Shown here in pieces: positions 7,729-25,008 of a DNA stretch of 64,000 nucleotides. The notes beneath the pieces were generated by a model. It was given only the letters and a program-made list of their open reading frames with translations. It searched no databases and was not told the DNA's origin. The DNA lies in the NCBI GenBank assembly GCA_002070645.1, contig MWDQ01000150.1, positions 36,261 through 100,260 of the forward strand. The letters run 5' to 3'. The translations under genes and the position numbers were made by a program. Numbering within the stretch: the stretch's first letter is position 1; each line of letters begins with the position of its first letter. The DNA comes from a candidate division TA06 bacterium ADurb.Bin131 (GTDB lineage: Bacteria > Ratteibacteria > UBA8468 > B48-G9 > DTJG01).

Positions 7729-8736
7729 CTAAATAATCAGCATTGCATCACCATAAGAATAAAATCTATACCCAGTATCAACTGCAATAGTATAAGCCTT
7801 TTGAATCAATTCAGTACCACCAAATGCACATACCATTGAAAGATGTGTTGAACGAGGCAAATGAAAATTTGTTATCATCTTATTTATATACCTAAACTCG
7901 TATCCAGGTTCAATAAATAAGTCAGTATACCGTTTACAAGCACAAATTTTATTGTTTGCTTTTTCTACACTTTCAATCGCCCTTACAGTACTTGTTCCTA
8001 CAGCGCAAATTTTTTTCCCTGTCCTAATTGCATCATTCAAAACACTGGCTGATTCTTCGGATATTTCAAAAAATTCAGGCAGAATGAGTTTTTTTTCGTC
8101 AAAACCTCTATATATACGCAATGAAGCATAACCAATATGAAGGGTTATAAACGTAATAACAACTCCTTTATTTTCTAATTCTTTAAGGATATTTTTTGTA
8201 AAATGTAATCCAGCAGTGGGCGCAGCAACTGAACCATATTTTTCTGCGTATACTGTCTGATAATCTGTTATATCTTTTTCATCATCGTCTCTCTTTATAT
8301 AAGGTGGAATTGGAACCCTGCCTATACTGAAGACCTTCTCATCATCATCTGTATCAAACTGCAAAATCCAGGAACCAACATCATTTTTTTTAAGAACTGT
8401 ACCCGAGATTTCATCAAATAATATCTGCATCCCTTCTTTAATTTTTCCTCGTATAAGAACCTCCCATATGCTGGGTTGTATTTTCTTTAATAAAAGAATC
8501 TCGATCTTTCCACCTGTTTCTTTTTTTCCGTAAAGCCTTGCTGGAATTACCCTTGTATTGTTTAAAACAAGCACATCTGAATTAGAAAAAAAATTTATGA
8601 TGTTTTTGAATATCGAATGTTCAATTTTTCCTGTCTGACGATTGACTATCATCAATTTTGCTTCTTCCCTTTGTTCAAGAGGTCTTTGAGCAATTCTATC
8701 CTGCGGAAGTTCATATTCAAAGATTTTATTATTCAT
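7729..8736 (-). CDS. queA: S-adenosylmethionine:tRNA ribosyltransferase-isomerase
   Basis: The 335-aa protein has the QueA N-terminus FEYELPQDRIAQRPLEQREEAKLM and lies upstream of tgt. Confidence 0.9.
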   Translation of the reverse strand: MNNKIFEYELPQDRIAQRPLEQREEAKLMIVNRQTGKIEHSIFKNIINFFSNSDVLVLNNTRVIPARLYGKKETGGKIEILLLKKIQPSIWEVLIRGKIKEGMQILFDEISGTVLKKNDVGSWILQFDTDDDEKVFSIGRVPIPPYIKRDDDEKDITDYQTVYAEKYGSVAAPTAGLHFTKNILKELENKGVVITFITLHIGYASLRIYRGFDEKKLILPEFFEISEESASVLNDAIRTGKKICAVGTSTVRAIESVEKANNKICACKRYTDLFIEPGYEFRYINKMITNFHLPRSTHLSMVCAFGGTELIQKAYTIAVDTGYRFYSYGDAMLII

Positions 8737-10400
8737 GGCTTATAAAAAAGCAAGATTTTAGGGTGGGCATAAATCATATCATGAAGGGTCCAGTCACAAT
8801 CAAAATATAGTTGACCAAAATGAGGTTCATTCTCAAAGATTTTTTTAAGCACAAATCCTTTTTTTTGGCAAAAATCTATCTTGTTTTGCATTTCCTTAAC
8901 TCTACTACCATAGGTAAGAAAATATTGAAGTTCTCCTATAATTAGAAAACTCCCGGAAGGTGCTGTCTCAAGATCTTTTTCTGATACTACTGCGTATCTT
9001 AATGGATTCACCGGGGGAACCTCGAATATCCATGGATCCTTTGTAAACACAAGTTTTTTATCCTGTGGAATCTCGTTGCTTATATACTCTGCTGCAAGAA
9101 TCCTTACATCCTTACAGGCCATTACCTTTGAATAAGCAACTGACTTAATTAAAACAGCCACAAGAATTAAGATACACAATGAAGAAGCAAAAATTTTTGC
9201 TCTTTTATTTTCTATCTGGAAAAAATCATTAAAAACAGAGCCTGCGCTTAAACATAAAAAAGGAAGTACCAATAAATAATATCGTGCGTACTTAAATCCT
9301 CCTGCAGTAAAAAGCGGCACAAGACAAAGAATAAGCCCTGTCAGGATTATTCTATCTTCTAATAATCTTCTTCTTGCGAGAAAATATATAGACAGGATAA
9401 ACAAAAACACAAGCAACCATGAACCAACCCAGAATGCCGCGAAAAAATTAATGAAACAGTTTATATACTGATATAAGCCAGAAGCACCAACACCTCTTGA
9501 TCCTGTCTGATATAGAATATCTCTTTTAAACTCATTAAATGCAATTATGCAGTATGGAGTTGTTATTAAAAATCCCACAAGAAACAAAACAAACAATATC
9601 AGCATATTTTTGATAAACCTACCAGGAGATTTTTCATAGGTTCTATAATAGACAAAGGGTAATAGGAATATAAGTATTCCTGCAGGATATTTTGTTCCAG
9701 TTGCAATTCCGAGTGTAAAGGCAGAAAATGCAATGTAAAAAAATTTTCTTCTTTTTACAAACATTACAATAAAAAAAAGGGAAACTATAATCCAGAAAAC
9801 CATTGGAATATCAACAGTCATATAATGGCTGTTTATTGAATATAATGGACAGAACCCAAGGCACGCAGTTGCAAAAGCAGCGCCATACCTTCCGCATAAT
9901 ACCAGTGCGACTTTATAAAATAAAATTAAACCACAAATAGCCATCAACAGCGTAATATATCTTCCTGCAAGATACATTTTTGCCATTTCATCAGGATGCT
10001 TGAAGTAATAAGAAATATCTGGTTCTATCTTTATAAATCCTGGTATTGAAAGAACCTTTAATGTAACTGCAACAAGATATATCTGAGAAGAAGGATACTC
10101 GAAAAAATGAGGATTAAAATCAAACCTTTCAGGAGACATTGTGCTTATACTTTTCAGGATATTTTGTTCATCAGGATGAAAAGAACGGATCGCATTAAAA
10201 ACAGACCTTGGCAATTTCTCTGGTAGATTTTCTTTGGAAATTTCCCAGCTGTGTTTGACATATTCTTGGGAAATATTGGCATCTTGAATATAAAAACTCT
10301 TTGTTTCTTCTGAAGGTAGTCCCCACTTTATACCTGTTGTATATAACAAAGATGCAAAGATAAAAATGCCAATAATTATAAACAAATAGGGCTTGTTCAT
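8733..10400 (-). CDS. polytopic membrane protein, putative GT-C-fold glycosyltransferase (paralog 1 of 3)
   Basis: The 555-aa protein has an N-terminal TM followed by the GIKWGLP motif, at least 9 predicted TMs and a conserved ~100-aa C-terminal soluble domain (EPHFG...HPKILLFYKP) shared with the ORFs at 20340 and 23287. It lacks the loop-1 DE motif of canonical PMT_2. Confidence 0.4.
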   Translation of the reverse strand: MNKPYLFIIIGIFIFASLLYTTGIKWGLPSEETKSFYIQDANISQEYVKHSWEISKENLPEKLPRSVFNAIRSFHPDEQNILKSISTMSPERFDFNPHFFEYPSSQIYLVAVTLKVLSIPGFIKIEPDISYYFKHPDEMAKMYLAGRYITLLMAICGLILFYKVALVLCGRYGAAFATACLGFCPLYSINSHYMTVDIPMVFWIIVSLFFIVMFVKRRKFFYIAFSAFTLGIATGTKYPAGILIFLLPFVYYRTYEKSPGRFIKNMLILFVLFLVGFLITTPYCIIAFNEFKRDILYQTGSRGVGASGLYQYINCFINFFAAFWVGSWLLVFLFILSIYFLARRRLLEDRIILTGLILCLVPLFTAGGFKYARYYLLVLPFLCLSAGSVFNDFFQIENKRAKIFASSLCILILVAVLIKSVAYSKVMACKDVRILAAEYISNEIPQDKKLVFTKDPWIFEVPPVNPLRYAVVSEKDLETAPSGSFLIIGELQYFLTYGSRVKEMQNKIDFCQKKGFVLKKIFENEPHFGQLYFDCDWTLHDMIYAHPKILLFYKP

Positions 10401-11116
10401 TAGTTTTGGAACCTGATTTGTATAAGTTCAACAAAACACTTAAAAGAATCTCTTAAAAACCTTACTGTCGTGGTTGGATCATTTGCCCATATTACACCAA
10501 TTTCTTTTATCCTGTATCCTGATTTTACTGCCCTATAAATAATCTCAACATCAAAAACAAATCCTTTATGCTTAAGTTCAGCAAATAGTTTCTTTGCAAT
10601 AGATCCTCTGAATAATTTGAATCCACATTGAGTATCAGAAAAAGGAAGATGTAGGATTGTGCGCACAAGCATTTGAAAAACCTTTCCTGATAATCTTCTC
10701 GGAAATGGTTGCTTTCTGGTAATCTGTGAATCCATTACTCTTCTTGAGCCAATTACTATGTCATATCCATTGGCAAGATAGGGCATAAATTTCTCTATCT
10801 CAGAGATTGGCGTTGATAAATCAGCATCAGAAAAAAGGATAAACTCTCCCTTTGCAACAAGTACCCCCTGAGAAATGGCTTCTCCCTTTCCCTTATTTTC
10901 TTTATAAGAAACAAGTTTGACAGAATTCAGTTTTTTGGCAATCGATTTAACTTTTGACGAGGTTTCATCACAACTTCCATCATCCACAACAACAATCTCA
11001 AAGATAATATTCTGCTTCTCAAAATATTCATTGATATTGTATAGGGTTGCCTCAATCGTGTTTTCCTCGTTATAAGCCGGAATTACTACACTAAGGTTTA
11101 CAGTATCTTTGTCCAT
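10400..11116 (-). CDS. GT2 glycosyltransferase, polyprenyl-phosphate sugar synthase-like (DPM1/ArnC/GtrB type)
   Basis: Motifs: LSVVIPAYNEE...IVVVDDGSCDET...SDADL. The ~240-aa length is typical of Dpm1/ArnC-like enzymes. Confidence 0.7.
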   Translation of the reverse strand: MDKDTVNLSVVIPAYNEENTIEATLYNINEYFEKQNIIFEIVVVDDGSCDETSSKVKSIAKKLNSVKLVSYKENKGKGEAISQGVLVAKGEFILFSDADLSTPISEIEKFMPYLANGYDIVIGSRRVMDSQITRKQPFPRRLSGKVFQMLVRTILHLPFSDTQCGFKLFRGSIAKKLFAELKHKGFVFDVEIIYRAVKSGYRIKEIGVIWANDPTTTVRFLRDSFKCFVELIQIRFQN

Positions 11117-11814
11117 GATTTTATCAATACATATATGTAAAGTTTCATGTATGGAAATGTCCTTGTTATCCTGAATTTTGATTTCCCTTTTTTTCTTCCA
11201 ACCCAGAATGTTGGCACATCACAAATCCTGTATCCGTATAAACAGAACTTCATTGCAGCTTCCATTGAAATAGCAAACCCATTTTCCTTTAAGCGAATAT
11301 CTTGAAGGATACTTCGCCTGTATGCCTTAAAAGCATTTGAAATATCCCTGGTCGGAAACCTTGCGAGATAATATAAAGAAAGACAGACAAACCTTGAAAA
11401 AAATCCCTGTAGTTTAGGCCCACCTATCTTTCCTGCACCTTTCATATATCGACATCCACATATAAGGTCATATCCTGATTTTGCTTTTTCAATCATCAGA
11501 GGTATTGTTTCTGGATCATCACATCCATCTGCCATTACAGGAAGAACAAATTCTCCACTGGCATTTTCAAACCCTGTTTTCAATGCATTTGCAAATCCTG
11601 CAGGTTTTTGATTATAAACCAGCTTTACCTCTTTATGTATACTGCATAATTTTTTTACAATTAATGAAGTATCATCAGTAGAATGGTCATCAACAACAAT
11701 AATCTCAACAAGATTTATACCCGTATATGGCAGAATATTTTCAATTGTTGAAGCAATAAGTTCTTGTTCATTTCTCGCTGGAATAACAATACTCAAAAAG
11801 GGTTGATCTTTCAT
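11098..11814 (-). CDS. GT2 glycosyltransferase, polyprenyl-phosphate sugar synthase-like
   Basis: Motifs: LSIVIPARNEQ...IIVVDDHSTDDT. The DxD-type catalytic core reads MADGCDD. Confidence 0.65.
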   Translation of the reverse strand: MKDQPFLSIVIPARNEQELIASTIENILPYTGINLVEIIVVDDHSTDDTSLIVKKLCSIHKEVKLVYNQKPAGFANALKTGFENASGEFVLPVMADGCDDPETIPLMIEKAKSGYDLICGCRYMKGAGKIGGPKLQGFFSRFVCLSLYYLARFPTRDISNAFKAYRRSILQDIRLKENGFAISMEAAMKFCLYGYRICDVPTFWVGRKKGKSKFRITRTFPYMKLYIYVLIKSWTKIL

Positions 11815-12938
11815 ACTAATTTTTTCTTCTTAAGTTCTTCCATTACAGAGATAAATCTATCTTCAGCAATCACAGAATCAGACCATTTTAATAGATTTAA
11901 CATCCCCCTTTCAAATGAAAAAGTAGGTTTAAAACCAAGAACCTTCTCTATTTTTCTCGTATCTGCATAGCAATGTCTTACATCTCCCTTTCTAAATCTA
12001 TAAGTCACAAGGGGGTGTATTTTTTTTCCTGAAAGATTAATAAGATTTTTTGCGACATCAAGGATGCTGACAGGTTTTCCTGTTCCAACATTAAAATACT
12101 GTTGGTTTGCCTTTTCATTTTCAAGGGCAAGAATATTTGCCCTTATAACATCATCAACCCATATAAAATCCCTTGTCTGAAGACCATCTTCAAATATAAC
12201 AGGTGGCTTATTATTTTTTATCCTGCTAATAAAAATTGCCGCAACGCCTGTATAAGGATTGCTCAATGATTGACGTGGGCCGTAAACATTAAAAAACCTC
12301 AGAGAAACAACTGGAATCCCATAGAGTTTCCCGATAAGTAAACACATTTCTTCTTGTTCTTTTTTTGTAATTGCGTAGATAGAATTAGAATCAAGTAAAG
12401 ATCCTTCGTCTGTTGGTATTGAATCTGCAATATCCCCGCATAAAGGACATTTTATTTCCCAGTACTCTTTTTCTTTTACTCCTGTGCCTTCAGGAATGTT
12501 TCTCAATGCAGGCTTGAAAATCCCGCACTTTTTACATCTTGCTTTACCCTCGCCGTAACTACTCATTGAAGCAGCAACAATCAATTTCTTAATGTGATGA
12601 CGACTATTAACAAGAATATCAAGAAGATTTGCAGTACCACAAATATTTACATCAACATATTTTGAAATCTGATACTGAGACTGCCCTACCCCAACTGCAG
12701 ATGCAAAATGAAATATAAAATCAGCATTGCATACTACTTCCTTTAGTTTTGAATAATCCCTTACATCTCCTTTAACAAAATCAACATTCCTGTTAAGATA
12801 TTCTGGAATATTTCCCTCAGGATGAACCTGTTGATCAAGATTATCAAATACAACAACACCATAGCCATTTTCAAGAAGCGCATCACAGAGATGACTCCCA
12901 ATAAATCCGGCTCCACCAGTGATAAGAACCTTTTTCAT
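11811..12938 (-). CDS. NAD-dependent sugar-nucleotide epimerase/dehydratase (extended SDR) with an inserted Cys4 zinc ribbon
   Basis: It has the Rossmann motif ITGGAGFIGSH, and the SDR fold resumes after the insert. A ~50-aa insert carries CKKCG...x24...CPLCG. Confidence 0.6.
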   Translation of the reverse strand: MKKVLITGGAGFIGSHLCDALLENGYGVVVFDNLDQQVHPEGNIPEYLNRNVDFVKGDVRDYSKLKEVVCNADFIFHFASAVGVGQSQYQISKYVDVNICGTANLLDILVNSRHHIKKLIVAASMSSYGEGKARCKKCGIFKPALRNIPEGTGVKEKEYWEIKCPLCGDIADSIPTDEGSLLDSNSIYAITKKEQEEMCLLIGKLYGIPVVSLRFFNVYGPRQSLSNPYTGVAAIFISRIKNNKPPVIFEDGLQTRDFIWVDDVIRANILALENEKANQQYFNVGTGKPVSILDVAKNLINLSGKKIHPLVTYRFRKGDVRHCYADTRKIEKVLGFKPTFSFERGMLNLLKWSDSVIAEDRFISVMEELKKKKLV

Positions 12939-13873
12939 TTTTTAACCTTAATGTAATAATCCAATGTCTTTTTTAGCCCTTCTTCAAGTTTTATAGTTGG
13001 AAACCAACCAAGAATTTTTTTTGCCAGTGTAATGTCGGGTTTTCTCTGTTTCGGGTCATCAGGAAGACCATCGAGAAACTTAATAGAAATATCAGCCCCA
13101 GAAAGTTTTTTCATTTTTTCAGCAAGTTCAATAATTGTAAATTCTTCGGGATTTCCAAGATTTACAGGTAGATGATAATCTGTTTCTATCAAAAGCAAAA
13201 AAGCAGAAATCAAATCATCCACATAACAAAAACTTCTTGTTTGTTTCCCATCGCCATATATTGTAAGTGGCTTGCTTGAAAGAATCTGTGAAATAAAATT
13301 TGGAATAACCCTGCCATCATTCAGACGCATCCGCGGCCCATATGTATTAAAAATCCTCGGAAGGTATGTTTTTAATCCATATTGTCTATGATAAGCCATA
13401 ACAAGCGCTTCTCCGTATCTTTTCCCTTCATCATAGACTGATCTTGGACCAACAGGGTTTACATTTCCCCAGTAGGTTTCTTTTTGAGGATGTACAAGGG
13501 GATCTCCATAAACCTCTGATGTTGATGTAAAAAGAAATCGAGCCCCTGCTTTTTTCGCAAGAGATAAACATCTATCTGTCCCGATTGAATTAACCCTGAG
13601 AGTTTCAAGTGGAAATTTCATATAGTCAGGAGGAGATGCTGGACTTGCAAGATGAAAGATTATATCTGGTTTTATAGAAATATTCTCAATATTAAATGAA
13701 ATGATATCTTCCTGTATAAACTTAAACCTAATATTTCCCGAAAGGTGTTTTACATTCTCAAAAGAACCTGTTATCAGATTATCAATGCAATATACATAAT
13801 CTCCGTTTTTCAATAATCTTTCACACAGATGACTACCAAGAAACCCTGCACCACCTGTAACAATAGCATTCAT
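12935..13873 (-). CDS. uxs: UDP-glucuronate decarboxylase (UDP-xylose synthase)
   Basis: The 312-aa protein has VTGGAGFLGSHL and the UXS-typical strings YGDPLVHPQKETYWGNVNPVGPRSVYDEGKR and FNTYGPRMRLNDGRVIPNFI. Confidence 0.8.
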   Translation of the reverse strand: MNAIVTGGAGFLGSHLCERLLKNGDYVYCIDNLITGSFENVKHLSGNIRFKFIQEDIISFNIENISIKPDIIFHLASPASPPDYMKFPLETLRVNSIGTDRCLSLAKKAGARFLFTSTSEVYGDPLVHPQKETYWGNVNPVGPRSVYDEGKRYGEALVMAYHRQYGLKTYLPRIFNTYGPRMRLNDGRVIPNFISQILSSKPLTIYGDGKQTRSFCYVDDLISAFLLLIETDYHLPVNLGNPEEFTIIELAEKMKKLSGADISIKFLDGLPDDPKQRKPDITLAKKILGWFPTIKLEEGLKKTLDYYIKVKK

Positions 13874-15192
13874 ACCTTTCTCCCGATTCCTGAATAGATA
13901 AATCCAAGTTTTTTTAAATGCTTCACATCAAGAAAATTTCTACAATCAATAATAAATGGGCTTTTCATCAATTTCTTTATTCTCTCAAAATTCAGTTCAG
14001 CAAACTGGGACCATTCCGTTAACAACATTAATAAATCACATGAATCAACTGCATCATAAGGATTGTTATAAACATCAACATCAGGTACCTCTATAACAAG
14101 ATTTTTAAGAGCCATCGGATCATAACATCTAACCTTTGCTCCCCTTGATATAAGTTTTTTTATTATCTCAACCGCCGGACTTTCTCTTAAGTCGTCTGTA
14201 TCTGGCTTAAACGCTGCTCCGAAAGCGCAAATTTTTTTGCCTGCAAGTCTTCCACCAAGAAGAGAAACAGCTTTTTTTATTGCTATTTCTCTCTGTTGTT
14301 TATTTATTTTTTCTACCTCTCTTAAAAGATTAAAAGAAATGCCAAGTTTTTTTGCAAGATAAATAAAAGCCCTGACATCTTTTGGAAAGCATGATCCACC
14401 ATAACCGATACCTGCATTAAGAAATGCCCTTCCAATTCTTTTGTCGTAACCCATTCCATCTGCCACATTATCAACATCTGCGTCACATCTCTCACATATT
14501 CGTGCAATAATATTAATATAGGAGATTTTCAAGGCAAGAAAAGAATTTGAGGCATGTTTTATTAATTCTGCACTTTTTATGTCAGTAAATAGCATAGGTG
14601 CATCTAATGGTTTATAAATCTCCTCAAATATTTTCTTTGCCCTCTGGTTTTCCACGCCAACAACAATCCTGTCGGGCTTCATAAAATCATTTACTGCACT
14701 TCCCTCTCTTAAAAATTCCGGATTTGCCGCCACATCAAAATCAAGGCCAACTGGCAGCATAATTTGCAGTGTTTTTTTAACCCATTCTCCTGTAAAAACA
14801 GGAACTGTGCTTTTCTCTACAATAATCTTGTAAATGCCAGATGGGTTCTTCAAACAGGTAAGAGCATCTGCTATCTCTGCTGTAACCTTCTCAATTGCCG
14901 ATAAATCAGCCCTACCACAATCTGATGAAGGAGTTCCGACTGCAATGAAAATAATTTCTGATTCGAGGGTTAACCTTTTAATAGAAGAGGTGAAAACAAG
15001 TTTTCCTTTCTCTGTTTCGCTTCGAACAAGATCATCAAGATTCGGTTCATAGAAAGGAATCTTATTTTTTTTCAGACACCTTATTTTCGATATATCATTG
15101 TCAGCACATAAAACATAATGGCCCATATTTGCAAAACACGCTGCTGTAACAAGGCCAACATGCCCAGCACCGATTATACCAATTTTTCTCAT
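13870..15192 (-). CDS. ugd: UDP-glucose 6-dehydrogenase
   Basis: The 440-aa protein has the NAD-binding N-terminus IGIIGAGHVGLVTAACFA, the catalytic Cys region GGSCFPKD and a UDP-binding C-terminal domain. Confidence 0.85.
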   Translation of the reverse strand: MRKIGIIGAGHVGLVTAACFANMGHYVLCADNDISKIRCLKKNKIPFYEPNLDDLVRSETEKGKLVFTSSIKRLTLESEIIFIAVGTPSSDCGRADLSAIEKVTAEIADALTCLKNPSGIYKIIVEKSTVPVFTGEWVKKTLQIMLPVGLDFDVAANPEFLREGSAVNDFMKPDRIVVGVENQRAKKIFEEIYKPLDAPMLFTDIKSAELIKHASNSFLALKISYINIIARICERCDADVDNVADGMGYDKRIGRAFLNAGIGYGGSCFPKDVRAFIYLAKKLGISFNLLREVEKINKQQREIAIKKAVSLLGGRLAGKKICAFGAAFKPDTDDLRESPAVEIIKKLISRGAKVRCYDPMALKNLVIEVPDVDVYNNPYDAVDSCDLLMLLTEWSQFAELNFERIKKLMKSPFIIDCRNFLDVKHLKKLGFIYSGIGRKV

Positions 15193-16223
15193 TTCTTCCC
15201 CTGGGAAAAAAATCCTGGATTTTCTCTTACCCAGTTTATCAAATATTCAACACCCTTAAAACCAGAAATCTCTGGTTCCCAGCCAGTTGCCTTTTTAATA
15301 GAAGCATTATCACTTATAAAAACCTTTTGATCACCAGGTCTCCATCTATCAAAACTGTATTTTATCTTTTCCCCGGTTATCCTCTCTATAATTTCTATGA
15401 TTTCAAGAAGGGAAAAAGAGTTTTGTTTCCCCCCACCAATATTAAAAATACTACCCGAACACACCTCTGCCTTTTCAAAAAGTGTTTTATACGCCCTGAT
15501 AAGATCATAAACGCAAAGAATATCTCTTACCTGTTTGCCATCTCCATAGATGGTAATTCCCCTACCTGAAAGGGCACAGATTACAAAATGTGCAATCCAG
15601 CCCTGGTCAACATTTCCATGCTGAAATGGTCCATATATACATGACTGCCTGAGGACAACTGTTTTCATATTATAAATTCGCGAATAATCTCTTGTATATT
15701 GATCTCCTGAACCTTTTGAACATCCATATGGAGAATGAAAATCCAGTTGCTGTTCTTCACTGATACCGTTTTCTTTATCTATAAAAGCATATCTGGTCTT
15801 AAGTTTTCTTATCCTTAAATTAGAAAGATCACCATAAACCTTGTTCGTTGAGGCATATAAAAAGAATGCATCCCTGGCCTTTTTTCGACATGCCTCAAGA
15901 AGGTATAATGTTCCTGAGGCATTTGTTTCAAAGTCATTGATTGGGTCATCAACAGAACTTGTAACAGCAACCTGTGCAGCAAGATGAAAAACGCAATCAG
16001 CGCCAGAAACAACCTGTTTCAGAAGATTAAAATCTCTTATATCTCCCTGAATAAACTGAAAATTCTTAAATCCCTGACCAAGAAGGAATCTAATATTACT
16101 CTTGACACCCTTCCTCGAAAGATTGTCATAAACAACAATAACATTATCAGGATTTCCTAAAAGATCCAGTGCAAGATTCGTCCCGATAAAACCAGCACCG
16201 CCCGTAATAATTATTTTTCTCAT
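15189..16223 (-). CDS. CDP-paratose/tyvelose 2-epimerase-like SDR epimerase
   Basis: It shares diagnostic strings with RfbE-type CDP-tyvelose 2-epimerases: ITGGAGFIG, FDNLSRKG, NKVYGD, LDFHSPYGCSKG and DQGW. Confidence 0.6.
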   Translation of the reverse strand: MRKIIITGGAGFIGTNLALDLLGNPDNVIVVYDNLSRKGVKSNIRFLLGQGFKNFQFIQGDIRDFNLLKQVVSGADCVFHLAAQVAVTSSVDDPINDFETNASGTLYLLEACRKKARDAFFLYASTNKVYGDLSNLRIRKLKTRYAFIDKENGISEEQQLDFHSPYGCSKGSGDQYTRDYSRIYNMKTVVLRQSCIYGPFQHGNVDQGWIAHFVICALSGRGITIYGDGKQVRDILCVYDLIRAYKTLFEKAEVCSGSIFNIGGGKQNSFSLLEIIEIIERITGEKIKYSFDRWRPGDQKVFISDNASIKKATGWEPEISGFKGVEYLINWVRENPGFFSQGKK

Positions 16224-16317
16224 TTCATTATTTTATCATTACTGCTAAAAAAAATCAGGCGAAACCTGCTGGTAAGGAATTAAAACCAGATAATATGAAA
16301 TTCTTAAGTTAATAAGT

Positions 16318-17172: not shown

Positions 17173-17801
17173 CTGATTTTTTTCCCCTCTCTTATTTTAC
17201 GAGGAGTATATCTTATTGGAACCTCGTATATCCTGATTTTCTTTTTTGCAATCTTCGCTGTTACTTCAGGACAAAACTCAAATCCTTTACAGTTAAGTTT
17301 GATACCTTTTAAGATATCACTCTTAAACATCTTATAACATGTGGGTTCATCAGTGATTGATGTTCCATAAAGAAGGTTTGTAAAAAAGGAAAGAATCCTT
17401 CCCCCAACATAAAATGAAAAAGAAGATGTTTGATTCTTCCCAAGTATTCTCGAGCCATAAACAACATCAGCCCTGCCCTGCTCTATTGGCTCTATCATCC
17501 TGAGATAATCCATTGGTTCATATTCAAGGTCTGCGTCCTGTATCACAACAACATCACCTGTAATCTCGTTTATTGCCCTTCGAATGGCATATCCTTTTCC
17601 AATATTCTTCGGTTGAAAAATAACCTTAATCAATGGGAATTTTTGCTGGGAAATCTTTTTGAGTATTTGACTTGTTCCATCTGTACTGCCATCATCAACA
17701 ATAATAATTTCTTTATTAATAGGAACTGTAAGAAGTTTTTGAATAATGACCTCAATGGTATTTTTTTCATTATAAACAGGAACGATCACAGAAAGTTTCA
17801 T
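17121..17801 (-). CDS. GT2 glycosyltransferase (short Dpm1-like form); paralog of the ORF at 25005
   Basis: Motifs: LSVIVPVYNEKNTI...IIIVDDGSTDGT...QDADLE. Confidence 0.7.
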   Translation of the reverse strand: MKLSVIVPVYNEKNTIEVIIQKLLTVPINKEIIIVDDGSTDGTSQILKKISQQKFPLIKVIFQPKNIGKGYAIRRAINEITGDVVVIQDADLEYEPMDYLRMIEPIEQGRADVVYGSRILGKNQTSSFSFYVGGRILSFFTNLLYGTSITDEPTCYKMFKSDILKGIKLNCKGFEFCPEVTAKIAKKKIRIYEVPIRYTPRKIREGKKIRWKDGVIAIWTLIRYRF

Positions 17802-18988
17802 TTATTTACAATCCCCTTTACATGCTCAAGAAACCAGAAAAACCCCTGACATGCAAACAGAATTACAAATGGTTCAATCGCAATCCTATAGCGTACAGAA
17901 GCAAGAAAAATCATATGAAAAATTGTAAAAAAAACAATTATACCTATAAGAAATGCCTTTTTCAGATCTAACGGCGGAATAAATAATCCAATGACAAAAA
18001 ATGGAAGCAGCAGTCCAAAACTCAATACGCTGACAAGACGATAAAAAAAACTGCTATAGTCGGATGCATTCAGTACAACATTCCAAAATCTGACAAACTT
18101 CTTCCCGAGGAGTTTTATAAATCTTACAGGATCTTGTTTTATATAGTCAATGGTAATCTTATAAAAAACACTGTCCCTTTTTGATTCATCAATCTGCCAG
18201 ACACCATCAGGAAAGTACCTGCAAGGACCACCTTCAGAATATGGATTATTTCCTTCCCAGAAAACAGCCCCTCCCATTGTTGTTCCCGGAATAAATTTGC
18301 CGAGGACAACAAAATTCCTTATAACCCAGGGAGATAGAATAAGAATAAAACCAAGCCCAGCAAAGAAAATTTTCAACAATCTTTTTTTGTAAGAACCTTC
18401 ACTAAAAAGAATGAAAACAAGAGCAAATGGGAAAAATGCTTCCATCGTTGGTCTGCATAAACCAGCGATACCTGTTATAAAACCTGGAATAGTTCCATAT
18501 AAAGGTGATGTGTCTGATTCAAAAACCCTAATGAACATAAGAATGGCAGATACCATAAGAAATATAAACAATGTTTCAGTAAGTAAAAACCCAGTATAAA
18601 AAATAAAAAATGGATAAACAGAGGAAATACAACCAGCAAGAATAGCAACCCTCTCAGAAAATACTTTTCTTCCGAGTAGATATATTAAAACACTTGTTAC
18701 TGCAGAAATTAACGCCTGAACAATCCTTATGCCCACAATACCAGAACCAAGTTTAACAAGTATCGCAATAAACAAAGGATAAACAGGAGGTCTATATGCT
18801 TTTAATGTTTCAGATACCATTAGACCTTTTCCAGAAAGAAAATTATTTACCATCTTCCAGTATTCCTGCTCATCATCAAAATAAAAATGTGGACCAAGTA
18901 AAAGAATAAATACAATTCTGACTAAAAATCCTACCAGAAATATCAAAAACAAAATATGACTTATTTTATACGAAGTTTTTTCAGCCAT
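17798..18988 (-). CDS. GT-C glycosyltransferase, PMT_2 / ArnT-like (GT39/GT83 family)
   Basis: The 396-aa polytopic membrane protein has a loop-1 DE motif (YFDDEQEY) and the PMT_2-like core (RPPVYPLFIAILVKLG...VYPFFIFYTGFLLTE). Confidence 0.65.
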   Translation of the reverse strand: MAEKTSYKISHILFLIFLVGFLVRIVFILLLGPHFYFDDEQEYWKMVNNFLSGKGLMVSETLKAYRPPVYPLFIAILVKLGSGIVGIRIVQALISAVTSVLIYLLGRKVFSERVAILAGCISSVYPFFIFYTGFLLTETLFIFLMVSAILMFIRVFESDTSPLYGTIPGFITGIAGLCRPTMEAFFPFALVFILFSEGSYKKRLLKIFFAGLGFILILSPWVIRNFVVLGKFIPGTTMGGAVFWEGNNPYSEGGPCRYFPDGVWQIDESKRDSVFYKITIDYIKQDPVRFIKLLGKKFVRFWNVVLNASDYSSFFYRLVSVLSFGLLLPFFVIGLFIPPLDLKKAFLIGIIVFFTIFHMIFLASVRYRIAIEPFVILFACQGFFWFLEHVKGIVNK

Positions 18989-19638
18989 ATTTTTAACCTG
19001 AATGTAAAAAGTGAATTATGTCCATATATACCAATCCTCGGAAGTGAATAAGAATCAAAACTACCCTTCCAGTTTGTAATAACCGCACCAGCGTACCCAG
19101 CATTTTTAACTGTTTGCCTGATTTTTTCGTTTTGACGACCATAAGGGTAGCAAAAAAAATCAATCCTCTGTCCAATGTTTTTTTCAATATATTTCTTTGA
19201 TTCAAATATTTCACTCCACACCTGTTTTCTTGGAAGTTTGGTAAGATCTGGATGTGTTAATGTATGAGAACCAAAGATAACGCCTGATTTTAACATCTCC
19301 TGAATCTCTTTCCATTTAAGGTATCTATCCTTTTCTTTGTCTTTATATCTTTCATGAATTTTCTCTGTTCCAATACTATGGGCAATAAGAAAAATTATTG
19401 GTTTTATCCCATATTTTTTCATAATTGGAAAAGCAATGAAAAAGTTATCTGCAAATCCATCATCAAATGTAACACAAAAAGTTCTTCTATGCGCATTGTT
19501 TTTGATATACTCATATAAAGAAACTGGCTCGTACTTTTCTTTCAATAAAAATCTTATCTGAGATTCAAACATTTCAGGAGAAACGCTTAATGCATCATCA
19601 GGATACCATTTGTTTATTCTATGATATGCAAGAATCAT
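18961..19638 (-). CDS. polysaccharide deacetylase (CE4, NodB homology; ArnD-like)
   Basis: It has the CE4 motifs TFDDG, HSIGTE...H and SHTLTHPDL. Confidence 0.7.
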   Translation of the reverse strand: MILAYHRINKWYPDDALSVSPEMFESQIRFLLKEKYEPVSLYEYIKNNAHRRTFCVTFDDGFADNFFIAFPIMKKYGIKPIIFLIAHSIGTEKIHERYKDKEKDRYLKWKEIQEMLKSGVIFGSHTLTHPDLTKLPRKQVWSEIFESKKYIEKNIGQRIDFFCYPYGRQNEKIRQTVKNAGYAGAVITNWKGSFDSYSLPRIGIYGHNSLFTFRLKIWLKKLRIK

Positions 19639-20353
19639 TTTTGAAGTTTATCCTCTTAAACCTGTATTGTATAATAAGAAATATCATTTTCATACCGAGA
19701 ACAAGTGATTTCCTGAAACTACCTGTTACAGAAGATTTTCCTACCCTCGGTTTATAGTTTACGGGAATCTCGATAAATCTAACATTTGCCTTTGCAACAA
19801 GAAGGGTTAATTCAGGTCCAAAATGTTGTGTTCCTACAGAAAAATGCGGCTTGAGTTTTTCATACAAAGGTCTTTTTATCAATCTCATTGTACAACCAAC
19901 ATCAGTAAGTGTTGTTGTATTGTATAAAAACTCGAGAAGTTTGGCTACAGCCCAATTTCCCCATTTTAAGAAAGCACCCATATTTGCATCTTTCCATATT
20001 AATTCTCTTGTTGTCCTTGTTCCAATAACATAATCAAAATCATCAGAATAGGCGAGCAATTTTATAACATCCCTTCCTGAAAATGTACCATCTGGTTCAG
20101 ATATAATAAAAAGTTCTCCTTTTGCCTCTTCTAATCCCTTCCATATCGCATATCCATAGCCCTGTTTTTTTTCATAGACAAGTTTTGCATTTGTTTTCTT
20201 TACCTCTTCGTCTGTCCCCTTTGCCGCATTATTATTAACAACAATAATCTCGTCAACAAATCCTGATGCAAAAAAATCTTCTATTGCATCTCTGATAGAA
20301 TCTTTCTCGTTATAGGTTGGGAAAATCACACTTACTTTTTTATTCTTCCACAT
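19619..20353 (-). CDS. GT2 glycosyltransferase, Dpm1/Ppm1-like polyprenyl-phosphate sugar synthase
   Basis: Motifs: VSVIFPTYNEKDSI...EIIVVNNN...EPDG (acidic catalytic motif). Confidence 0.65.
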   Translation of the reverse strand: MWKNKKVSVIFPTYNEKDSIRDAIEDFFASGFVDEIIVVNNNAAKGTDEEVKKTNAKLVYEKKQGYGYAIWKGLEEAKGELFIISEPDGTFSGRDVIKLLAYSDDFDYVIGTRTTRELIWKDANMGAFLKWGNWAVAKLLEFLYNTTTLTDVGCTMRLIKRPLYEKLKPHFSVGTQHFGPELTLLVAKANVRFIEIPVNYKPRVGKSSVTGSFRKSLVLGMKMIFLIIQYRFKRINFKNDSCIS

Positions 20354-22079
20354 ATTTCCTCTTATAAATTATAATATAAGGGTTTGCAACCCAGACATCC
20401 TTCGCAGAGAATTTTGTTCTATTAAAGGTTATTCCAAAAAATGAAGCAGGTTTCTGAAATTTCTTCAGTGTATAATAATGCAAAAAAAAGTTTCCAAGGG
20501 TTTCTTCTGTCTGCCATAATGTTTCATATTCGCTGATAATAAAATAATCTGGCTTCGTTGTTTCCAGTTTTTCTTTATCCCATAAAACAGGGATAATATC
20601 ATATCTGTAAAATTGAAAGCTCGGAGTTCTATAAGGAGCCGGCATCTGAAGCATTCCTATCTTTGATTTTTCAGGGATATTCATATTTATCCATCTTCCT
20701 GCCTCTTCACGAATATTCTCCTGCGCAAAAACTCTCGTGTTTGCTCCAGAATAGAAAAATGTTAATATAAGCACAAAAAGTGTTAACATTCCTCCGATAA
20801 TCCTGATTCTTTTTATTACATGAATTAGAAATATCCCTGCAAACATAGCCATAAATGGCATCAGAAATATTCCTCTGCGCACATACCAGGGAGAAAAACA
20901 CGAAAAAATCACCAGTGGTACTATTATTGAGGTAATCAGAAAAATAGAATTACTGTTCCTTTCCTTCATGCATAATAAAATATATCCTGCAATAAAACTC
21001 AATAAAAATGGCCATCCAGCACCGGATTTTAAGGAAGCAAAAACAAAATAGAAAAAATCAGGAGAAAACTTAAAATCTCCTCCTTCAAATTTTAATACCT
21101 TTAGAAAGGTTTCCTTATCAAGAATAAGGAATATATGAATTATGCCAACCACTACAATAAACATCACAATTCCGAAAGCACTGTTTTTCAACATTCTATA
21201 CAAATCTTCCCTTTTCCCATTATACGCTGATATCAATCCTGCAGTAATCATAAACATAATACACACACCATACAAGGAAACAACAGACATAGCAATAGAT
21301 GCAAATATAGCAGAGATAAGATAATATTTTAACTGTTTATTGGAAATTATCTTAAGTCCATATAAAAAAGACAAAAGCACAAAAGGCAATGCAAAGCCGT
21401 AGTAATACCCAAAGTGATTCCACATATTCAATGCAGGACATATACCAAACAGAAAAGAGGAAACAAGTCCAACCTCTGGTCCCCAGAGGTTATTGCTGAT
21501 TGACCAGACAAGATAAATGCTAAAAAGGAACGCAAGAATTAAAAGAATCCTTATGGAAAGGTAAACCTTTTTTAGTTCTCCTGGATGTTCAAGATAAAAA
21601 GTAGAATCCCCCAATTTTATTATTTGGAGAAAATTGCACATACCAAGCCATAATCCTGTAGCATAAACATAAAAACACCCGGGTATTAAAACCTTTGGGC
21701 TGAATTTTTTCTCTTTGGGATTGATATTTGAAAGAGCCGCCAGGGTTATATGTTCATCAGGATAATATGTTCTTAAAAGATATGTGCGCATGGCATTTAT
21801 CTTACCCACTGTTAATGGAACCTTAAAACCACTGAATTTAATAATTTTATCCTCATCATAATCTTTTCGGTACTCATCCCCAGGAGATTTAATCATCTGT
21901 CTTATTTCTTGTCTTGTTTCTGCCATTATAGGAACAAGAGCATTTAGAACTTTTTCATTTCCAAAAATAAGATTAATTATATTCTGTCCAGGAAGTCCCC
22001 ATCCAATTCCCAAAAGATTAATACATAAGGAAATTAACATAATAAAAAACAGTAAAATATAAATTCTTTTCTGTTTCAT
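20340..22079 (-). CDS. polytopic membrane protein, putative GT-C-fold glycosyltransferase (paralog 2 of 3)
   Basis: The 579-aa protein has an N-terminal TM plus GIGWGLP, many TMs and a C-terminal soluble domain (QKPASFFG...ANPYIIIYKRK) homologous to those of the ORFs at 8733 and 23287. Confidence 0.4.
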   Translation of the reverse strand: MKQKRIYILLFFIMLISLCINLLGIGWGLPGQNIINLIFGNEKVLNALVPIMAETRQEIRQMIKSPGDEYRKDYDEDKIIKFSGFKVPLTVGKINAMRTYLLRTYYPDEHITLAALSNINPKEKKFSPKVLIPGCFYVYATGLWLGMCNFLQIIKLGDSTFYLEHPGELKKVYLSIRILLILAFLFSIYLVWSISNNLWGPEVGLVSSFLFGICPALNMWNHFGYYYGFALPFVLLSFLYGLKIISNKQLKYYLISAIFASIAMSVVSLYGVCIMFMITAGLISAYNGKREDLYRMLKNSAFGIVMFIVVVGIIHIFLILDKETFLKVLKFEGGDFKFSPDFFYFVFASLKSGAGWPFLLSFIAGYILLCMKERNSNSIFLITSIIVPLVIFSCFSPWYVRRGIFLMPFMAMFAGIFLIHVIKRIRIIGGMLTLFVLILTFFYSGANTRVFAQENIREEAGRWINMNIPEKSKIGMLQMPAPYRTPSFQFYRYDIIPVLWDKEKLETTKPDYFIISEYETLWQTEETLGNFFLHYYTLKKFQKPASFFGITFNRTKFSAKDVWVANPYIIIYKRKYVEE

Positions 22080-23335
22080 TTGTTCTTTTCAGGAATAAAA
22101 CATCTTATACCAAATACTGCCATTATAATCAAAAAAGGCATCAATGGCTCACGATACCTTATAACTGTCTTGAAAAACAGAATTACGGGAATGGATAGAA
22201 AAATAATCAACAAATATATTAAAAGGTATTCCCTCCATTTTCTCAAAGAAAAAATAAACCCAAGTCCTGCAAGGATAAAAATAGGAAGATTTGTAAGGAT
22301 GGCTACTTTTACATGATAGGATTTATAATTCTCTCCAGGACCCGAAAAGGTGTGAGGTGATATCCTCCAAAATCTAACAAACCTGTCTGCTACAAGACGA
22401 AAATACACATGTGGATTGTTTTTAATAAAATTAAATGCCGCCCTGTAAAAGTATCTATCTGTTTCAACTTCTGACAATCCTTTGATTGCTTTTATAACAG
22501 GTTCATCATATCTACCAGTTGGATCCCAGTATCCAGAATCCTGATAAAGGGATTTCTCGTTGTTTGCAATATAGCAAACAATCCCACCTTCTGTTGATGT
22601 TAGCAAAATTGTCTTATGAATATGGTAGTTTCTTAAAATCCATGGTGTCATTACAATAAAACACGATAAAAGCATATAAACTGTATTTTTAAGAGCAAAC
22701 TTCACATTACATATCACGGTCAGCCATATAAAGATTGCCGGTATAAAAACAAGAAAAAGAGATCTTGTTAAAACTCCAAAACCAAGAACAAAACCAGAAA
22801 TAAAAAATAGAAGTGAATCCTGTTTTTTCTCTGCAAGAAAACATAGATACACTGTAAGTAATGCAAAGAATATTTCAAGAGTAACAGGTACAAGATAACC
22901 AGTCCAGAAAATCCCAGGTGGATAAAAAACATAAAGAAGAGACGTAAGAATCGCTGATTTATTATCTAGAAGAATTCTGCCAAGGGAAAAAAGCAATAAA
23001 CATGTAATAGAACTAACTATTGCAAGACAAATCTTTGCTGCAAGAAAACTATGCCCAAACAATTTATACACGCCTGCAAGAAATAATGGGAATACTGGAG
23101 ACCTCCAGGAATAATAAACAGGACCATCAGAAAAATAGGGATTATTTACCCAGTATCCTTGGCCTGTTGCTAATTTCCATCCCAGTTCATCCCACCAGTC
23201 CCCCCAGACATCAACTGTATTGTCGAGAGTAGAAATAAAGCCAATCCTTAAAATTAATGCAAGAAAAAATATCCCAACAAGAAGGATTATAAGTTTTTTC
23301 TTTTCCATATTAGTATTGTTGGATTTGGATGACAC
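22076..23335 (-). CDS. GT-C glycosyltransferase, PMT_2 / ArnT-like
   Basis: The 419-aa protein has a loop-1 DE motif (WWDELGW), the PMT_2 core (RSPVFPLFLAGVYKLFG...VFYPPGIFWTGYLVPVTLE) and more than 10 TMs. Confidence 0.65.
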   Translation of the reverse strand: MSSKSNNTNMEKKKLIILLVGIFFLALILRIGFISTLDNTVDVWGDWWDELGWKLATGQGYWVNNPYFSDGPVYYSWRSPVFPLFLAGVYKLFGHSFLAAKICLAIVSSITCLLLFSLGRILLDNKSAILTSLLYVFYPPGIFWTGYLVPVTLEIFFALLTVYLCFLAEKKQDSLLFFISGFVLGFGVLTRSLFLVFIPAIFIWLTVICNVKFALKNTVYMLLSCFIVMTPWILRNYHIHKTILLTSTEGGIVCYIANNEKSLYQDSGYWDPTGRYDEPVIKAIKGLSEVETDRYFYRAAFNFIKNNPHVYFRLVADRFVRFWRISPHTFSGPGENYKSYHVKVAILTNLPIFILAGLGFIFSLRKWREYLLIYLLIIFLSIPVILFFKTVIRYREPLMPFLIIMAVFGIRCFIPEKNK

Positions 23336-25008
23336 CAGTCATAAGGAATAGATTCAGGATGACTGAATACCAGATTAAAAAAATGTGGTTCACTCTTAAA
23401 CTCCTTGATGATTTTATAATCAGATAGAAGTTTTTTTATGTTTTCAAAAGACCCTCCTCTAACCCATTGATACTCACTTACAACAAAATATTCTGAATAC
23501 TTGATTGTTTCTTTTGATGCTCCGATAAGTATATTATATTTCAAAAATTGAAATGGCGGTGTTCTCCACGGAGAGGGTGCTTCGAGAAGTCCAATTTTTG
23601 ATCCATAAGGAATATTATTATTAATCCATATACCCGCAGATGTTCTAACATTTTCCTGAGAAAATAAGTTCACATACGATAAGGAAAAAATAAATGTATA
23701 TAATATTCCTATAGAAATCAATATTTTTGGAAATTGTTTTTTTATCTTCGTCATACCCAGAACAATAACAACAAAAATATAAGGGTATAATATAAAAGCA
23801 TAGTGAACCCATCTACCTGTTGAAAACCCAAAATAAAGAAATCCTGGAAGTATACTCAAAAAAATCAGTATAAATCTTTTATCCTGCCTTATTAAAAAAC
23901 AAACAACAAGAAAAACAATGGAAATAAGATATGTTGCTGTACCAAGTCCATACCTCAGGGATGTCGTCATAAAATACTTGAGATTAGCAAAATTAGAGGA
24001 ACCCTTCCAGTATGACTGTATATAAAACATTTCATTGATGAATTCTTTGAAAGAAATTAAAACATAAGGGTTTGTCAAAAAGTAGGAAAACAAAAAACAA
24101 ACAAGACATATCAGTATATTTTTGAATAAACTCTTAAAATCAGTAGACACAAGAAATATCATAAAAATGAAAGTAATAAAAACATATCCATAAGAAAGGA
24201 TGCTGCCCATTGAAATACCTGAAAATAAACAACCAGCAATAAGCCATTTTCTTTTCTTCTCATCCATAAATCTAAAAGCACAGTAGAGAGCAAGAATAAC
24301 CCATAACATTCCATAGCAGTAAGGTTTAAGATAATGAGACCACATAACAAAAACAGGAGATATCGCGAACAACATTGACACAAGAAAAGAGGCACTATCA
24401 TCCTTCAAAATATAAGAAGACAGAAAATAAAAACATATCACTGAAAAAATAAAGAAAATCCCACCGAAGATTCTTAAAAGCGTATAAAGACGACCAATTT
24501 TATCAGGATTTGTAAAATAAAAACTAATGTCACTGTGCAATTCAGCAATTTTAAGAGCAGAACAAATCTTCAAAAAAATTCCAGCAGGATAAAGATACGC
24601 TCCTCCATACTCGAAAAAATGCGGGTTGAAATCAAACCTCGAGGGATTCATCTTGCTTAAACTAACAAGAACAGCCTGTTCATCTGCGCCATAGGATCTT
24701 ATCAAATAGCTTCTCATTGAATTTATAATTTCTCTTGAAACAAGATGTTTTTTTCCATTAATATTAATCTCTACCTTTTCTGCAGGATTATAACTGCCTG
24801 AATATGGTGCACCATAAAATTCTTGCATCTCACGTATTTCTTCATGAGCATCCCTCATTAATTCTGAAAGATTTTGAACTTCTGTTTCTCCATTAAACAC
24901 AGAAGAAATACGGCCTTTATCAGGAACACCCCAGTTTATTCCCTTAAAGTGAAAAAAACCTGTTATTAAAATAAGCAACAGCAAATAAAATATTTTTTTA
25001 ACACTCAT
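23287..25008 (-). CDS. polytopic membrane protein, putative GT-C-fold glycosyltransferase (paralog 3 of 3)
   Basis: The 573-aa protein has GINWGVP after the first TM, the string NPSRFDFNPHFFEYGG (almost identical to that in the ORF at 8733) and the C-terminal domain SEPHFFN...HPNPTILIWKRK. Confidence 0.4.
   Translation of the reverse strand: MSVKKIFYLLLLILITGFFHFKGINWGVPDKGRISSVFNGETEVQNLSELMRDAHEEIREMQEFYGAPYSGSYNPAEKVEININGKKHLVSREIINSMRSYLIRSYGADEQAVLVSLSKMNPSRFDFNPHFFEYGGAYLYPAGIFLKICSALKIAELHSDISFYFTNPDKIGRLYTLLRIFGGIFFIFSVICFYFLSSYILKDDSASFLVSMLFAISPVFVMWSHYLKPYCYGMLWVILALYCAFRFMDEKKRKWLIAGCLFSGISMGSILSYGYVFITFIFMIFLVSTDFKSLFKNILICLVCFLFSYFLTNPYVLISFKEFINEMFYIQSYWKGSSNFANLKYFMTTSLRYGLGTATYLISIVFLVVCFLIRQDKRFILIFLSILPGFLYFGFSTGRWVHYAFILYPYIFVVIVLGMTKIKKQFPKILISIGILYTFIFSLSYVNLFSQENVRTSAGIWINNNIPYGSKIGLLEAPSPWRTPPFQFLKYNILIGASKETIKYSEYFVVSEYQWVRGGSFENIKKLLSDYKIIKEFKSEPHFFNLVFSHPESIPYDWCHPNPTILIWKRKNL

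Follow-up and report, generated by a model that had tools for sequence, protein, structure and literature searches.

Three diverged PMT_2-type membrane proteins in a conserved glycosyltransferase array of a Ratteibacteria genome, and their probable role as lipid-sugar-dependent enzymes

Here we describe three long, related membrane proteins encoded in a 64,000-nucleotide stretch of DNA (the window) from candidate division TA06 bacterium ADurb.Bin131, a member of the Ratteibacteria (assembly GCA_002070645.1, contig MWDQ01000150.1, positions 36,261 to 100,260 of the forward strand). Paralog A (555 aa, 8733-10400), paralog B (579 aa, 20340-22079) and paralog C (573 aa, 23287-25008) all start with ATG, are read from the minus strand and lie within an array of 17 genes rich in glycosyltransferases. 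They were singled out in a preliminary description of this DNA, made from its letters alone, as a divergent or undescribed group of GT-C glycosyltransferases. We show that they are ordinary PMT_2-type enzymes, members of an uncharacterised subfamily with an insertion in the first extracytoplasmic loop (loop 1) and not a new class. From the evidence taken together, we consider it probable that A, B and C diverged long ago from one another within one such subfamily of GT-C(A) fold, and that they act as inverting, lipid-sugar-dependent glycosyltransferases on the periplasmic face of the membrane.

Kinship, family and fold of the three proteins

The coordinates and the paralogy given in the preliminary description were exact. 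In BLASTP comparisons with compositional adjustment, B and C align over their full length (566 columns, 30% identity, E=4e-71), A and C at 27% identity (E=1e-45), and A and B at 21% identity (E=2e-23), so that homology spans nearly the entire length of the proteins. The similarity is far above chance and above what composition could produce, which excludes the compositional artefact that had been named as a possible refutation, and paralogy is directly established. Each of the three is closer to its own orthologs in other genomes (52-59% identity) than to its paralogs in the window (21-30%), from which it follows that the duplications are old; a recent tandem duplication is ruled out by the same figures. 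Orthologs of A reach 58-71% identity, and one ortholog of B (P0058) stands at 52%.

All three proteins score above the gathering threshold of the Pfam family PMT_2 (PF13231; 26.1 bits, whole-protein score), with 40.5 bits for A, 29.9 for B and 29.3 for C, and A also exceeds the threshold of Pfam PMT (PF02366) with 23.8 bits. Among 37 relatives, 33 match PMT_2 at E<=0.01 and eight match PMT above threshold. The Pfam alignment to the three covers only their central ~135 residues. A and B are without any NCBIfam match, C has only a weak sub-threshold match to Agl23, and neither the loop-1 insertion nor the C-terminal domain is covered by any NCBIfam or Pfam model. By sequence (HMMER), the closest solved relative is ArnT (5ezm; CAZy family GT83), at E=8e-5 and over the core only, from transmembrane helix (TM) 2 to TM9. 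It is because of this missing model coverage and this distance to the nearest solved relative that we call the subfamily uncharacterised; relatives carry the NCBI automatic names "glycosyltransferase family 39 protein", "ArnT family glycosyltransferase" and "phospholipid carrier-dependent glycosyltransferase".

An AlphaFold model of C, built from a 37-sequence alignment, reached a pLDDT of 94.7 and a pTM of 0.93, and in a Foldseek search with this model the top 38 matches were all GT-C proteins. The GT-C identity of the three is thus strongly supported, and we count the fold among the directly established results. The part of the preliminary description that called them GT-C enzymes therefore stands, as does the absence of a characterised counterpart; novelty at the level of class does not, given the presence of the DE motif described below and the routine automatic naming of relatives as PMT_2-type enzymes.

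Close homologs occur in metagenome-assembled genomes (MAGs) labelled Candidatus Ratteibacteria or Omnitrophota, and more distant ones in Elusimicrobiota, Eisenbacteria and others. An exhaustive search with the family profile returned 2,693 clusters (at 50% identity) with E<=1e-30, a count that probably takes in other PMT_2-type relatives too. The architecture of the three proteins is seen in the best 150 of these 2,693 clusters, which all have E<1e-84, measure 337-628 aa (most of them 540-625) and mostly match over their full length. The subfamily is accordingly large, and joins a PMT-like catalytic core to a plan of 7+4 TM helices and a luminal-type domain resembling that of ALG9 and ALG12.

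Loop 1, candidate catalytic residues and the C-terminal domain

Residue numbers below follow C, and family counts refer to 123 representatives unless stated otherwise. Each of the three proteins carries the motif R(S/T)xxxDE(Q/H) in its first extracytoplasmic loop. Its acidic pair, read from the translations, is D77-E78 in A (10167-10172), D108-E109 in B (21753-21758) and Asp109-Glu110 in C (24679-24684), the latter being the presumed catalytic DE motif of the modelled protein; model secondary structure and hydropathy place it between TM1 and TM2. D109 and E110 are invariant in the 37 relatives and occur in 119/123 and 121/123 of the representatives, in which no other acidic position is conserved in more than 75%; no feature of the family is better conserved than this DE. 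The claim in that description that the three lack a loop-1 DE motif is thereby overturned; the pair was probably missed because it stands 48-80 residues past the WGxP motif and not beside TM1.

A group of shorter relatives (~500-540 aa, automatically named "ArnT-like") links this displaced motif to the usual one. In these proteins the DE stands ~6 residues past a post-TM1 G-x-G-I-P motif, and is followed by an NPHFF(D/E)YP block and a C-terminal domain as in the family of A, B and C. An hhalign comparison of the two families gave a probability of 100% (E=2e-40, 448 columns), with an alignment that begins exactly at the DE (the post-TM1 "VDE" of the shorter relatives) and extends to the C-terminus. 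On the strength of this profile-profile alignment we read the DE of A, B and C as the canonical loop-1 DE, shifted by an insertion of 48 residues in A-type proteins and of 78-80 residues in the B and C types.

In C, the insertion comprises residues 30-105 (24694-24921), between WGxP and DE, and is modelled as a helix (41-61), a beta-hairpin (78-91) and a second helix (92-103). The length of the WGxP-DE spacer is bimodal across the family, at either 48-63 or 72-95 aa, and A has the short form. Directly past TM1 and before the insertion lies the motif GINWGVP of C (residues 23-29; 24922-24942), which A (residues 23-29; 10314-10334) and B (residues 24-30; 21990-22010) share in the form GIxWG(L/V)P; the G(I/N)xWG(L/V)P motif reported earlier for all three is thus present, and with G27 in 111/123 and P29 in 117/123 the WGxP element is family-wide. 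Further along loop 1, past the DE, follows the block NPSRFDFNPHFFEYGG of C (24601-24648), with equivalents in A (10089-10136) and, in degenerate form, in B (21675-21722). As had been noticed, it is near-identical in two of the proteins, A and C, in the form (N/S)PxRFDFNPHFFEY, and it includes P129 (115/123) and Y140 (119/123). Despite the degeneration of its NPHFFEY block, B retains the DE, Y140, Y164, P168 and R179. The conservation of all these motifs is observed directly.

Position R179 is Lys or Arg in 100% of the family, and in HMMER alignments to solved structures it pairs with R138 of yeast Pmt1 and R111 of ArnT. The activity of Pmt1 depends on D77/E78 and R138, and the Streptomyces coelicolor Pmt carries D113/E114 and R182 in its loop 1 (PMC8698208); the spacing from DE to Arg is 68 residues in the S. 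coelicolor enzyme and 69 residues here. Also conserved on the periplasmic side are H225 (87% basic), R/H402 (86%) and a TNPY motif at 312-315, which by analogy only may be regarded as candidates for binding the donor phosphate.

A topology was drawn from the helices of the model, hydropathy, the alignments to ArnT and Pmt1 and the distribution of Lys and Arg. The most consistent arrangement would have 11 TM helices with a cytoplasmic N-terminus and the C-terminus outside. Its cytoplasmic loops are rich in Lys and Arg, its loop 1 is very long (residues 22-175) and holds juxtamembrane helices, and its periplasmic loop 4 comprises residues 313-356. An arrangement with 13 TM helices, in which the helix at 136-151 served as TM2, was dropped for parity conflicts.

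Beyond the last TM helix, C has a confidently modelled extramembrane domain of mixed alpha/beta structure (residues 451-573; 23290-23658), placed in the periplasm by this topology, with counterparts in A (8736-9125) and B (20343-20732). The preliminary description had predicted such a domain in all three, and it exists, at ~125 aa instead of the ~100 proposed; of the terminal motifs listed for all three, EPHF is missing from B and KRK from A. The best structural matches of the domain are the C-domains of GT-C enzymes, namely ALG12, ALG9, STT3 and AglB. The likeness is weak, and the scores of the model-based search are modest (STT3B 6.5, ALG9 5.9, AftD 5.7, AglB-L 5.7, ArnT 4.5), but the enrichment in GT-C C-domains appears clear. 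No PMT was matched in this search, and a word-indexed homologue search with an alignment of the domain returned three fragmentary proteins only. The earlier suggestion of a carbohydrate-binding module of the EmbC/AftD type did not hold up, being ruled out by the alpha/beta make-up of the domain and low Z scores; unlike Emb/AftD-type arabinosyltransferases (GT53 and relatives), A, B and C have no large periplasmic carbohydrate-binding modules.

The overall plan recalls that of ALG9 and ALG12 (CAZy GT22, Dol-P-Man-dependent and facing the lumen of the endoplasmic reticulum), in which a conserved module of seven TM helices is followed by four further helices and a luminal C-domain, and in ALG12 loop 1 and the C-domain together make the acceptor cavity (PMC13503287). 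By this comparison it is plausible that the C-terminal domain of A, B and C takes part in selecting the acceptor. The resemblance is one of architecture, as there is no detectable sequence similarity and Pfam Glyco_transf_22 was touched by only 1/37 relatives; moreover, A, B and C are bacterial, their catalytic residues stand in a different context, and their acceptor would not be a dolichol-PP-oligosaccharide.

The 17-gene array and its conservation

The array occupies the minus strand from 25688 down to 7729, in the order glycosyltransferase family 2 (GT2) protein of 227 aa - C - PMT_2 protein of 419 aa - B - GT2 of 244 aa - polysaccharide deacetylase - PMT_2 protein of 396 aa - GT2 of 226 aa - methyltransferase - tyvelose-epimerase-like short-chain dehydrogenase/reductase (SDR) - Ugd - UDP-xylose synthase - GalE-like epimerase - GT2 of 238 aa - GT2 of 238 aa - A - queA. 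Intergenic distances range from -52 to -1 nt with one exception of 94 nt, ATGA overlaps join GT2(227) to C and PMT_2(419) to B, and no further minus-strand open reading frame (ORF) of at least 80 aa lies between the genes. Together, the array holds five GT-C genes (the three long ones and two short PMT_2 genes) and five GT2 genes, none of which encodes a TM helix.

The five GT2 proteins, all identified by Pfam, have polyprenyl-phosphate glycosyltransferases as their nearest solved relatives, namely Pyrococcus furiosus Dol-P-Man synthase (DPMS), ArnC and GtrB, and their best NCBIfam similarities, all below cut-off, are to AglJ, ArnC, PpgS and a Dol-P-hexose transferase. The 227-aa protein (25005-25688), a presumed polyprenyl-phosphate sugar synthase encoded by a gene that runs with its stop codon into the start of C, has P. 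furiosus DPMS (1e-17) and ArnC as its best relatives in the PDB. The two 238-aa proteins directly upstream of A (10400-11116 and 11098-11814) are closest to DPMS (2e-19), GtrB and ArnC. The remaining two are the 244-aa (19619-20353) and 226-aa (17121-17801) proteins. Of the short GT-C genes, the 419-aa one between B and C (22076-23335; PMT_2 55.7 bits) has a canonical loop-1 "WWDELGW" near TM1, and the 396-aa one lies at 17798-18988 (Pfam).

The other genes point to the metabolism of nucleotide sugars and to sugar modification. Pfam identifies a UDP-glucose 6-dehydrogenase (Ugd, 13870-15192), and next to it is a 312-aa UDP-glucuronate decarboxylase/UDP-xylose synthase (12935-13873) of the type of human UXS1 (E=3.5e-108, as against about 1e-27 for the ArnA type). 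The SDR at 15189-16223 resembles CDP-tyvelose 2-epimerase (PDB match at 1e-91). The GalE-like epimerase (375 aa, 11811-12938) matches GalE-type structures in two pieces, 3-132 and 168-352; its SDR fold is split by ~35 inserted residues that include two CxxC pairs (CKKCG...CPLCG) and may be a zinc ribbon. The polysaccharide deacetylase (18961-19638; Pfam) has neither a signal peptide nor a TM helix. The S-adenosylmethionine-dependent methyltransferase (16318-17172; Pfam), which may methylate a sugar, has an N-terminal CPLCGG...CKRCG motif and is kept beside GT2(226) in related loci.

The triad GT2(244) - polysaccharide deacetylase - PMT_2(396), at 17798-20353, has the logic of ArnC/ArnD/ArnT, in which, by analogy, a lipid-linked sugar would be deacylated before periplasmic transfer. 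The LgmA/LgmC/LgmB locus of Bordetella follows the same logic.

Gene order and its conservation across genomes, namely MAGs labelled Ratteibacteria/Omnitrophota, are directly established. A scan of a genome collection with 20 of the closer sequences, a choice that explains why mostly C-type orthologs were returned, yielded 23 MAG loci in which the order GT2(227) - C - PMT_2(419) - (optional B-type gene) - GT2(244) - deacetylase - PMT_2(396) - GT2(226) - methyltransferase - epimerase - Ugd is largely kept. The C ortholog is directly preceded by GT2(227) in 16 of the 21 assessable loci and followed by PMT_2(419) in most; B is at its array position in only some. GT2(244) is by far the best-conserved protein of the array: in most loci it shows 79-91% identity, against mostly 41-78% for its neighbours. 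At the other end, two A-type loci (L026 and L027) keep the order epimerase - Ugd - UXS - epimerase - GT2 - GT2 - A - queA - tgt, at 47-58% identity.

Two of the loci call for separate mention. The closest one in the genome collection (L003, DYKA01000001.1), with 71% identity to C and full synteny, was deposited as "Vermiphilus sp."; every further close relative bears the label Ratteibacteria, Omnitrophota or unclassified bacterium, and the deposit is probably a mislabelled or mis-binned MAG. At the locus of relative P0024 (L001/L002, 9663-10004), an asparagine-synthase-like gene and an ORF of 113 aa, for which Pfam gave no match, take the place of the GT2 upstream of the C ortholog, and MatE/Polysacc_synt (Wzx-like) genes a few kb upstream are possible flippase candidates.

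Proposed function and competing explanations

The presence of DPM1/ArnC/GtrB-like GT2 genes beside GT-C genes suggests polyprenyl-phosphate sugars as donors. In the pathway that we propose, the adjacent soluble GT2, working at the cytoplasmic face, would move a monosaccharide from a nucleotide sugar to polyprenyl (undecaprenyl) phosphate, the loaded lipid would then be flipped across the membrane, and the GT-C enzyme, by an inverting transfer on the periplasmic side, would pass the sugar to an acceptor of the cell envelope. The loop-1 pair D109-E110 (in C) would act as catalytic base or acceptor-activating pair, and R179, probably with H225 and R/H402, would bind the donor phosphate. Selection of the acceptor would fall to a periplasmic cap made by the enlarged loop 1 together with the C-terminal alpha/beta domain, so that donor and/or acceptor specificity most likely varies among the three paralogs. 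The conserved Ugd/UDP-xylose synthase/epimerase/GT2/GT2 block upstream of A leads us to suppose that A probably transfers a pentose (Xyl or L-Ara) or a uronic acid. As for the acceptor, a surface glycolipid or glycan (LPS-core-like, that is, of the lipopolysaccharide type, or another envelope polysaccharide), decorated or extended stepwise by the five GT-Cs, appears most likely.

Periplasmic glycosylation systems made up of a GT2, a flippase and a GT-C have been described, such as GtrA/GtrB/GtrX, CsbB/YfhO and PPPRS-MATE-GT136, and the placement of GT2 beside GT-C genes is common to them and to this locus (PMC11127046, PMC8035078). Unlike these systems, the array has GT2s of the soluble type and five GT-Cs with five GT2s instead of one of each.

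Several observations weigh against this proposal. No flippase gene of the GtrA, MATE/Wzx or ArnE/F type is found among the 17 genes of the array, all of which are otherwise assigned; the flippase may be encoded elsewhere. GT2(244) persists in loci that have no B, so that the relation of GT2s to GT-Cs is not one-to-one and B has no demonstrably dedicated synthase; specific GT2/GT-C pairings are accordingly only suggested by adjacency. A profile of loop 1 alone found no PDB match at E<=10, and in hhalign comparisons with the two short PMT_2 proteins of the array the alignment was confined to the membrane core (TM2-TM7 of the topology proposed above) and left out loop 1. The equivalence of the DE with that of known enzymes is deduced from the bridging alignment, position and spacing, and we infer the geometry of the active site in the same way. 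The catalytic function is predicted from sequence for a subfamily that has no characterised member, and the nature of the acceptor is entirely inferred.

The best-surviving alternative, which we regard as possible although doubtful, is a special case of the proposed pathway in which the acceptor is named: each paralog would take a single sugar from an undecaprenyl-phosphate donor and attach it to lipid A phosphates or inner-core sugars, in the manner of ArnT or the Rgt enzymes. The neighbourhood resembles the arn pathway in its ArnC-like GT2s, ArnD-family deacetylase, Ugd and UDP-GlcA decarboxylase beside GT-Cs, and the "ArnT family" name attached to some relatives agrees with this. Rhizobium, in which several ArnT-like paralogs (RgtA-D) work with one GT2 (RgtE), offers a precedent. 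However, the array contains no ArnB-type aminotransferase and no ArnA formyltransferase domain, its decarboxylase is of the UXS1 type, its GT2s differ from ArnC by the absence of C-terminal TM helices, no NCBIfam ArnT model is matched, and the three proteins would have 11 TM helices as opposed to the 13 of ArnT.

Protein O-glycosylation, with transfer from polyprenyl-phosphate sugars to Ser/Thr of secreted or envelope proteins by bacterial PMT-type enzymes, is in our view unlikely. With the PMTs (Pfam PMT/PMT_2, CAZy GT39; yeast Pmt1, Pmt2 and Pmt4, and the Pmt proteins of S. coelicolor and Mycobacterium tuberculosis) A, B and C share the PMT_2 profile, the loop-1 DE with an Arg equivalent to Pmt1 R138 at a spacing of ~68-69 residues, and the 11 TM helices deduced above, and the match of A and eight relatives to Pfam PMT would suit such a role. 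On the other hand, they have an insertion of 48-80 aa between TM1 and the DE and no MIR (beta-trefoil) domain, none being detected in the three with Pfam at E<=1 or seen inserted in the model of C; in the structure search their C-terminal alpha/beta domain found its best counterparts in ALG12, ALG9 and oligosaccharyltransferases and none in PMTs. Ugd, UXS and the epimerases do not point to mannose, and five GT-Cs in company with genes for Xyl and uronic acid fit the building or decoration of a glycan better, the operon context thus suggesting a glycan or glycolipid acceptor and not a protein.

Transfer en bloc of an oligosaccharide from polyprenyl diphosphate, as by STT3/AglB/PglB (GT66) or O-OTase-like enzymes, is very improbable: the WWDYG-type motif is absent ("WWD" occurs nowhere in A, B or C) and none of the three matches Pfam STT3, which together rule out an oligosaccharyltransferase identity; in addition, the neighbouring GT2s are of the monosaccharide-type polyprenyl-phosphate kind, and among the neighbours there is no initiating phosphoglycosyltransferase, cytoplasmic GT-B set or Wzx. 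Finally, although the role of flippase is formally vacant in the array, the chance that the proteins are transporters or flippases, or that their motifs merely reflect hydrophobic composition, is negligible, given the BLASTP values (E 2e-23 to 4e-71), the conserved DE and Arg signature, and the fact that all significant Foldseek matches are GT-C, the first transporter appearing at E=0.7 and a probability of 0.06; the transporter or flippase fold that the preliminary description had named as a refutation is thereby ruled out. Overall, we favour the decoration of a surface glycolipid or glycan over protein O-glycosylation and en bloc transfer.

A bolder version of this proposal, which we offer as a long shot, is that the array is a self-contained assembly line for a periplasmic glycan in an uncultured, PVC-related phylum (Ratteibacteria/Omnitrophota). 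Five GT-Cs would make an envelope polymer with Xyl, Ara or uronic acid from lipid-linked monosaccharides alone, with TM-less GT2s docking directly on the GT-Cs to which they are translationally coupled and with an undescribed acceptor cap. If true, the polymer would be built or branched in the manner of mycobacterial arabinan/mannan synthesis, and the cap formed by the loop-1 insertion and the C-domain would set the linkage specificity of each paralog.

The main outcome is therefore a correction, in that canonical DE-motif GT-C enzymes take the place of a motif-less new class. For the Ratteibacteria, a phylum so far represented by metagenomes alone, it reveals three ancient paralogs in a conserved operon that combines a UDP-xylose pathway with five GT-Cs and five GT2s, a concrete entry point to the glycans of the envelope.

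The window also carries housekeeping genes (valS, metG, tgt, queA, secY, rpoA and a ribosomal protein operon), and these chromosomal surroundings of the array rule out a mobile-element or phage origin. Some 10-14 kb from the array, on the plus strand, are genes with lipid-carrier and surface-glycan functions, encoding an undecaprenyl-diphosphate phosphatase (BacA/UppP, 35623-36414) and a Wzy_C (O-antigen-ligase-like) protein with C-terminal TPR repeats (38055-39848). A 730-aa ORF at 32017-34209 (plus strand) matches no Pfam family significantly, its only hit being a sub-threshold match to a PPC domain (E=9e-5). A gene pair of PSCyt2/PSD1 (DUF1549/DUF1553) and DUF1501 lies at 29067-32020 (plus strand); pairs of this kind are characteristic of genomes of the Planctomycetota and the rest of the PVC group, in agreement with the taxonomic labels of the homologs.

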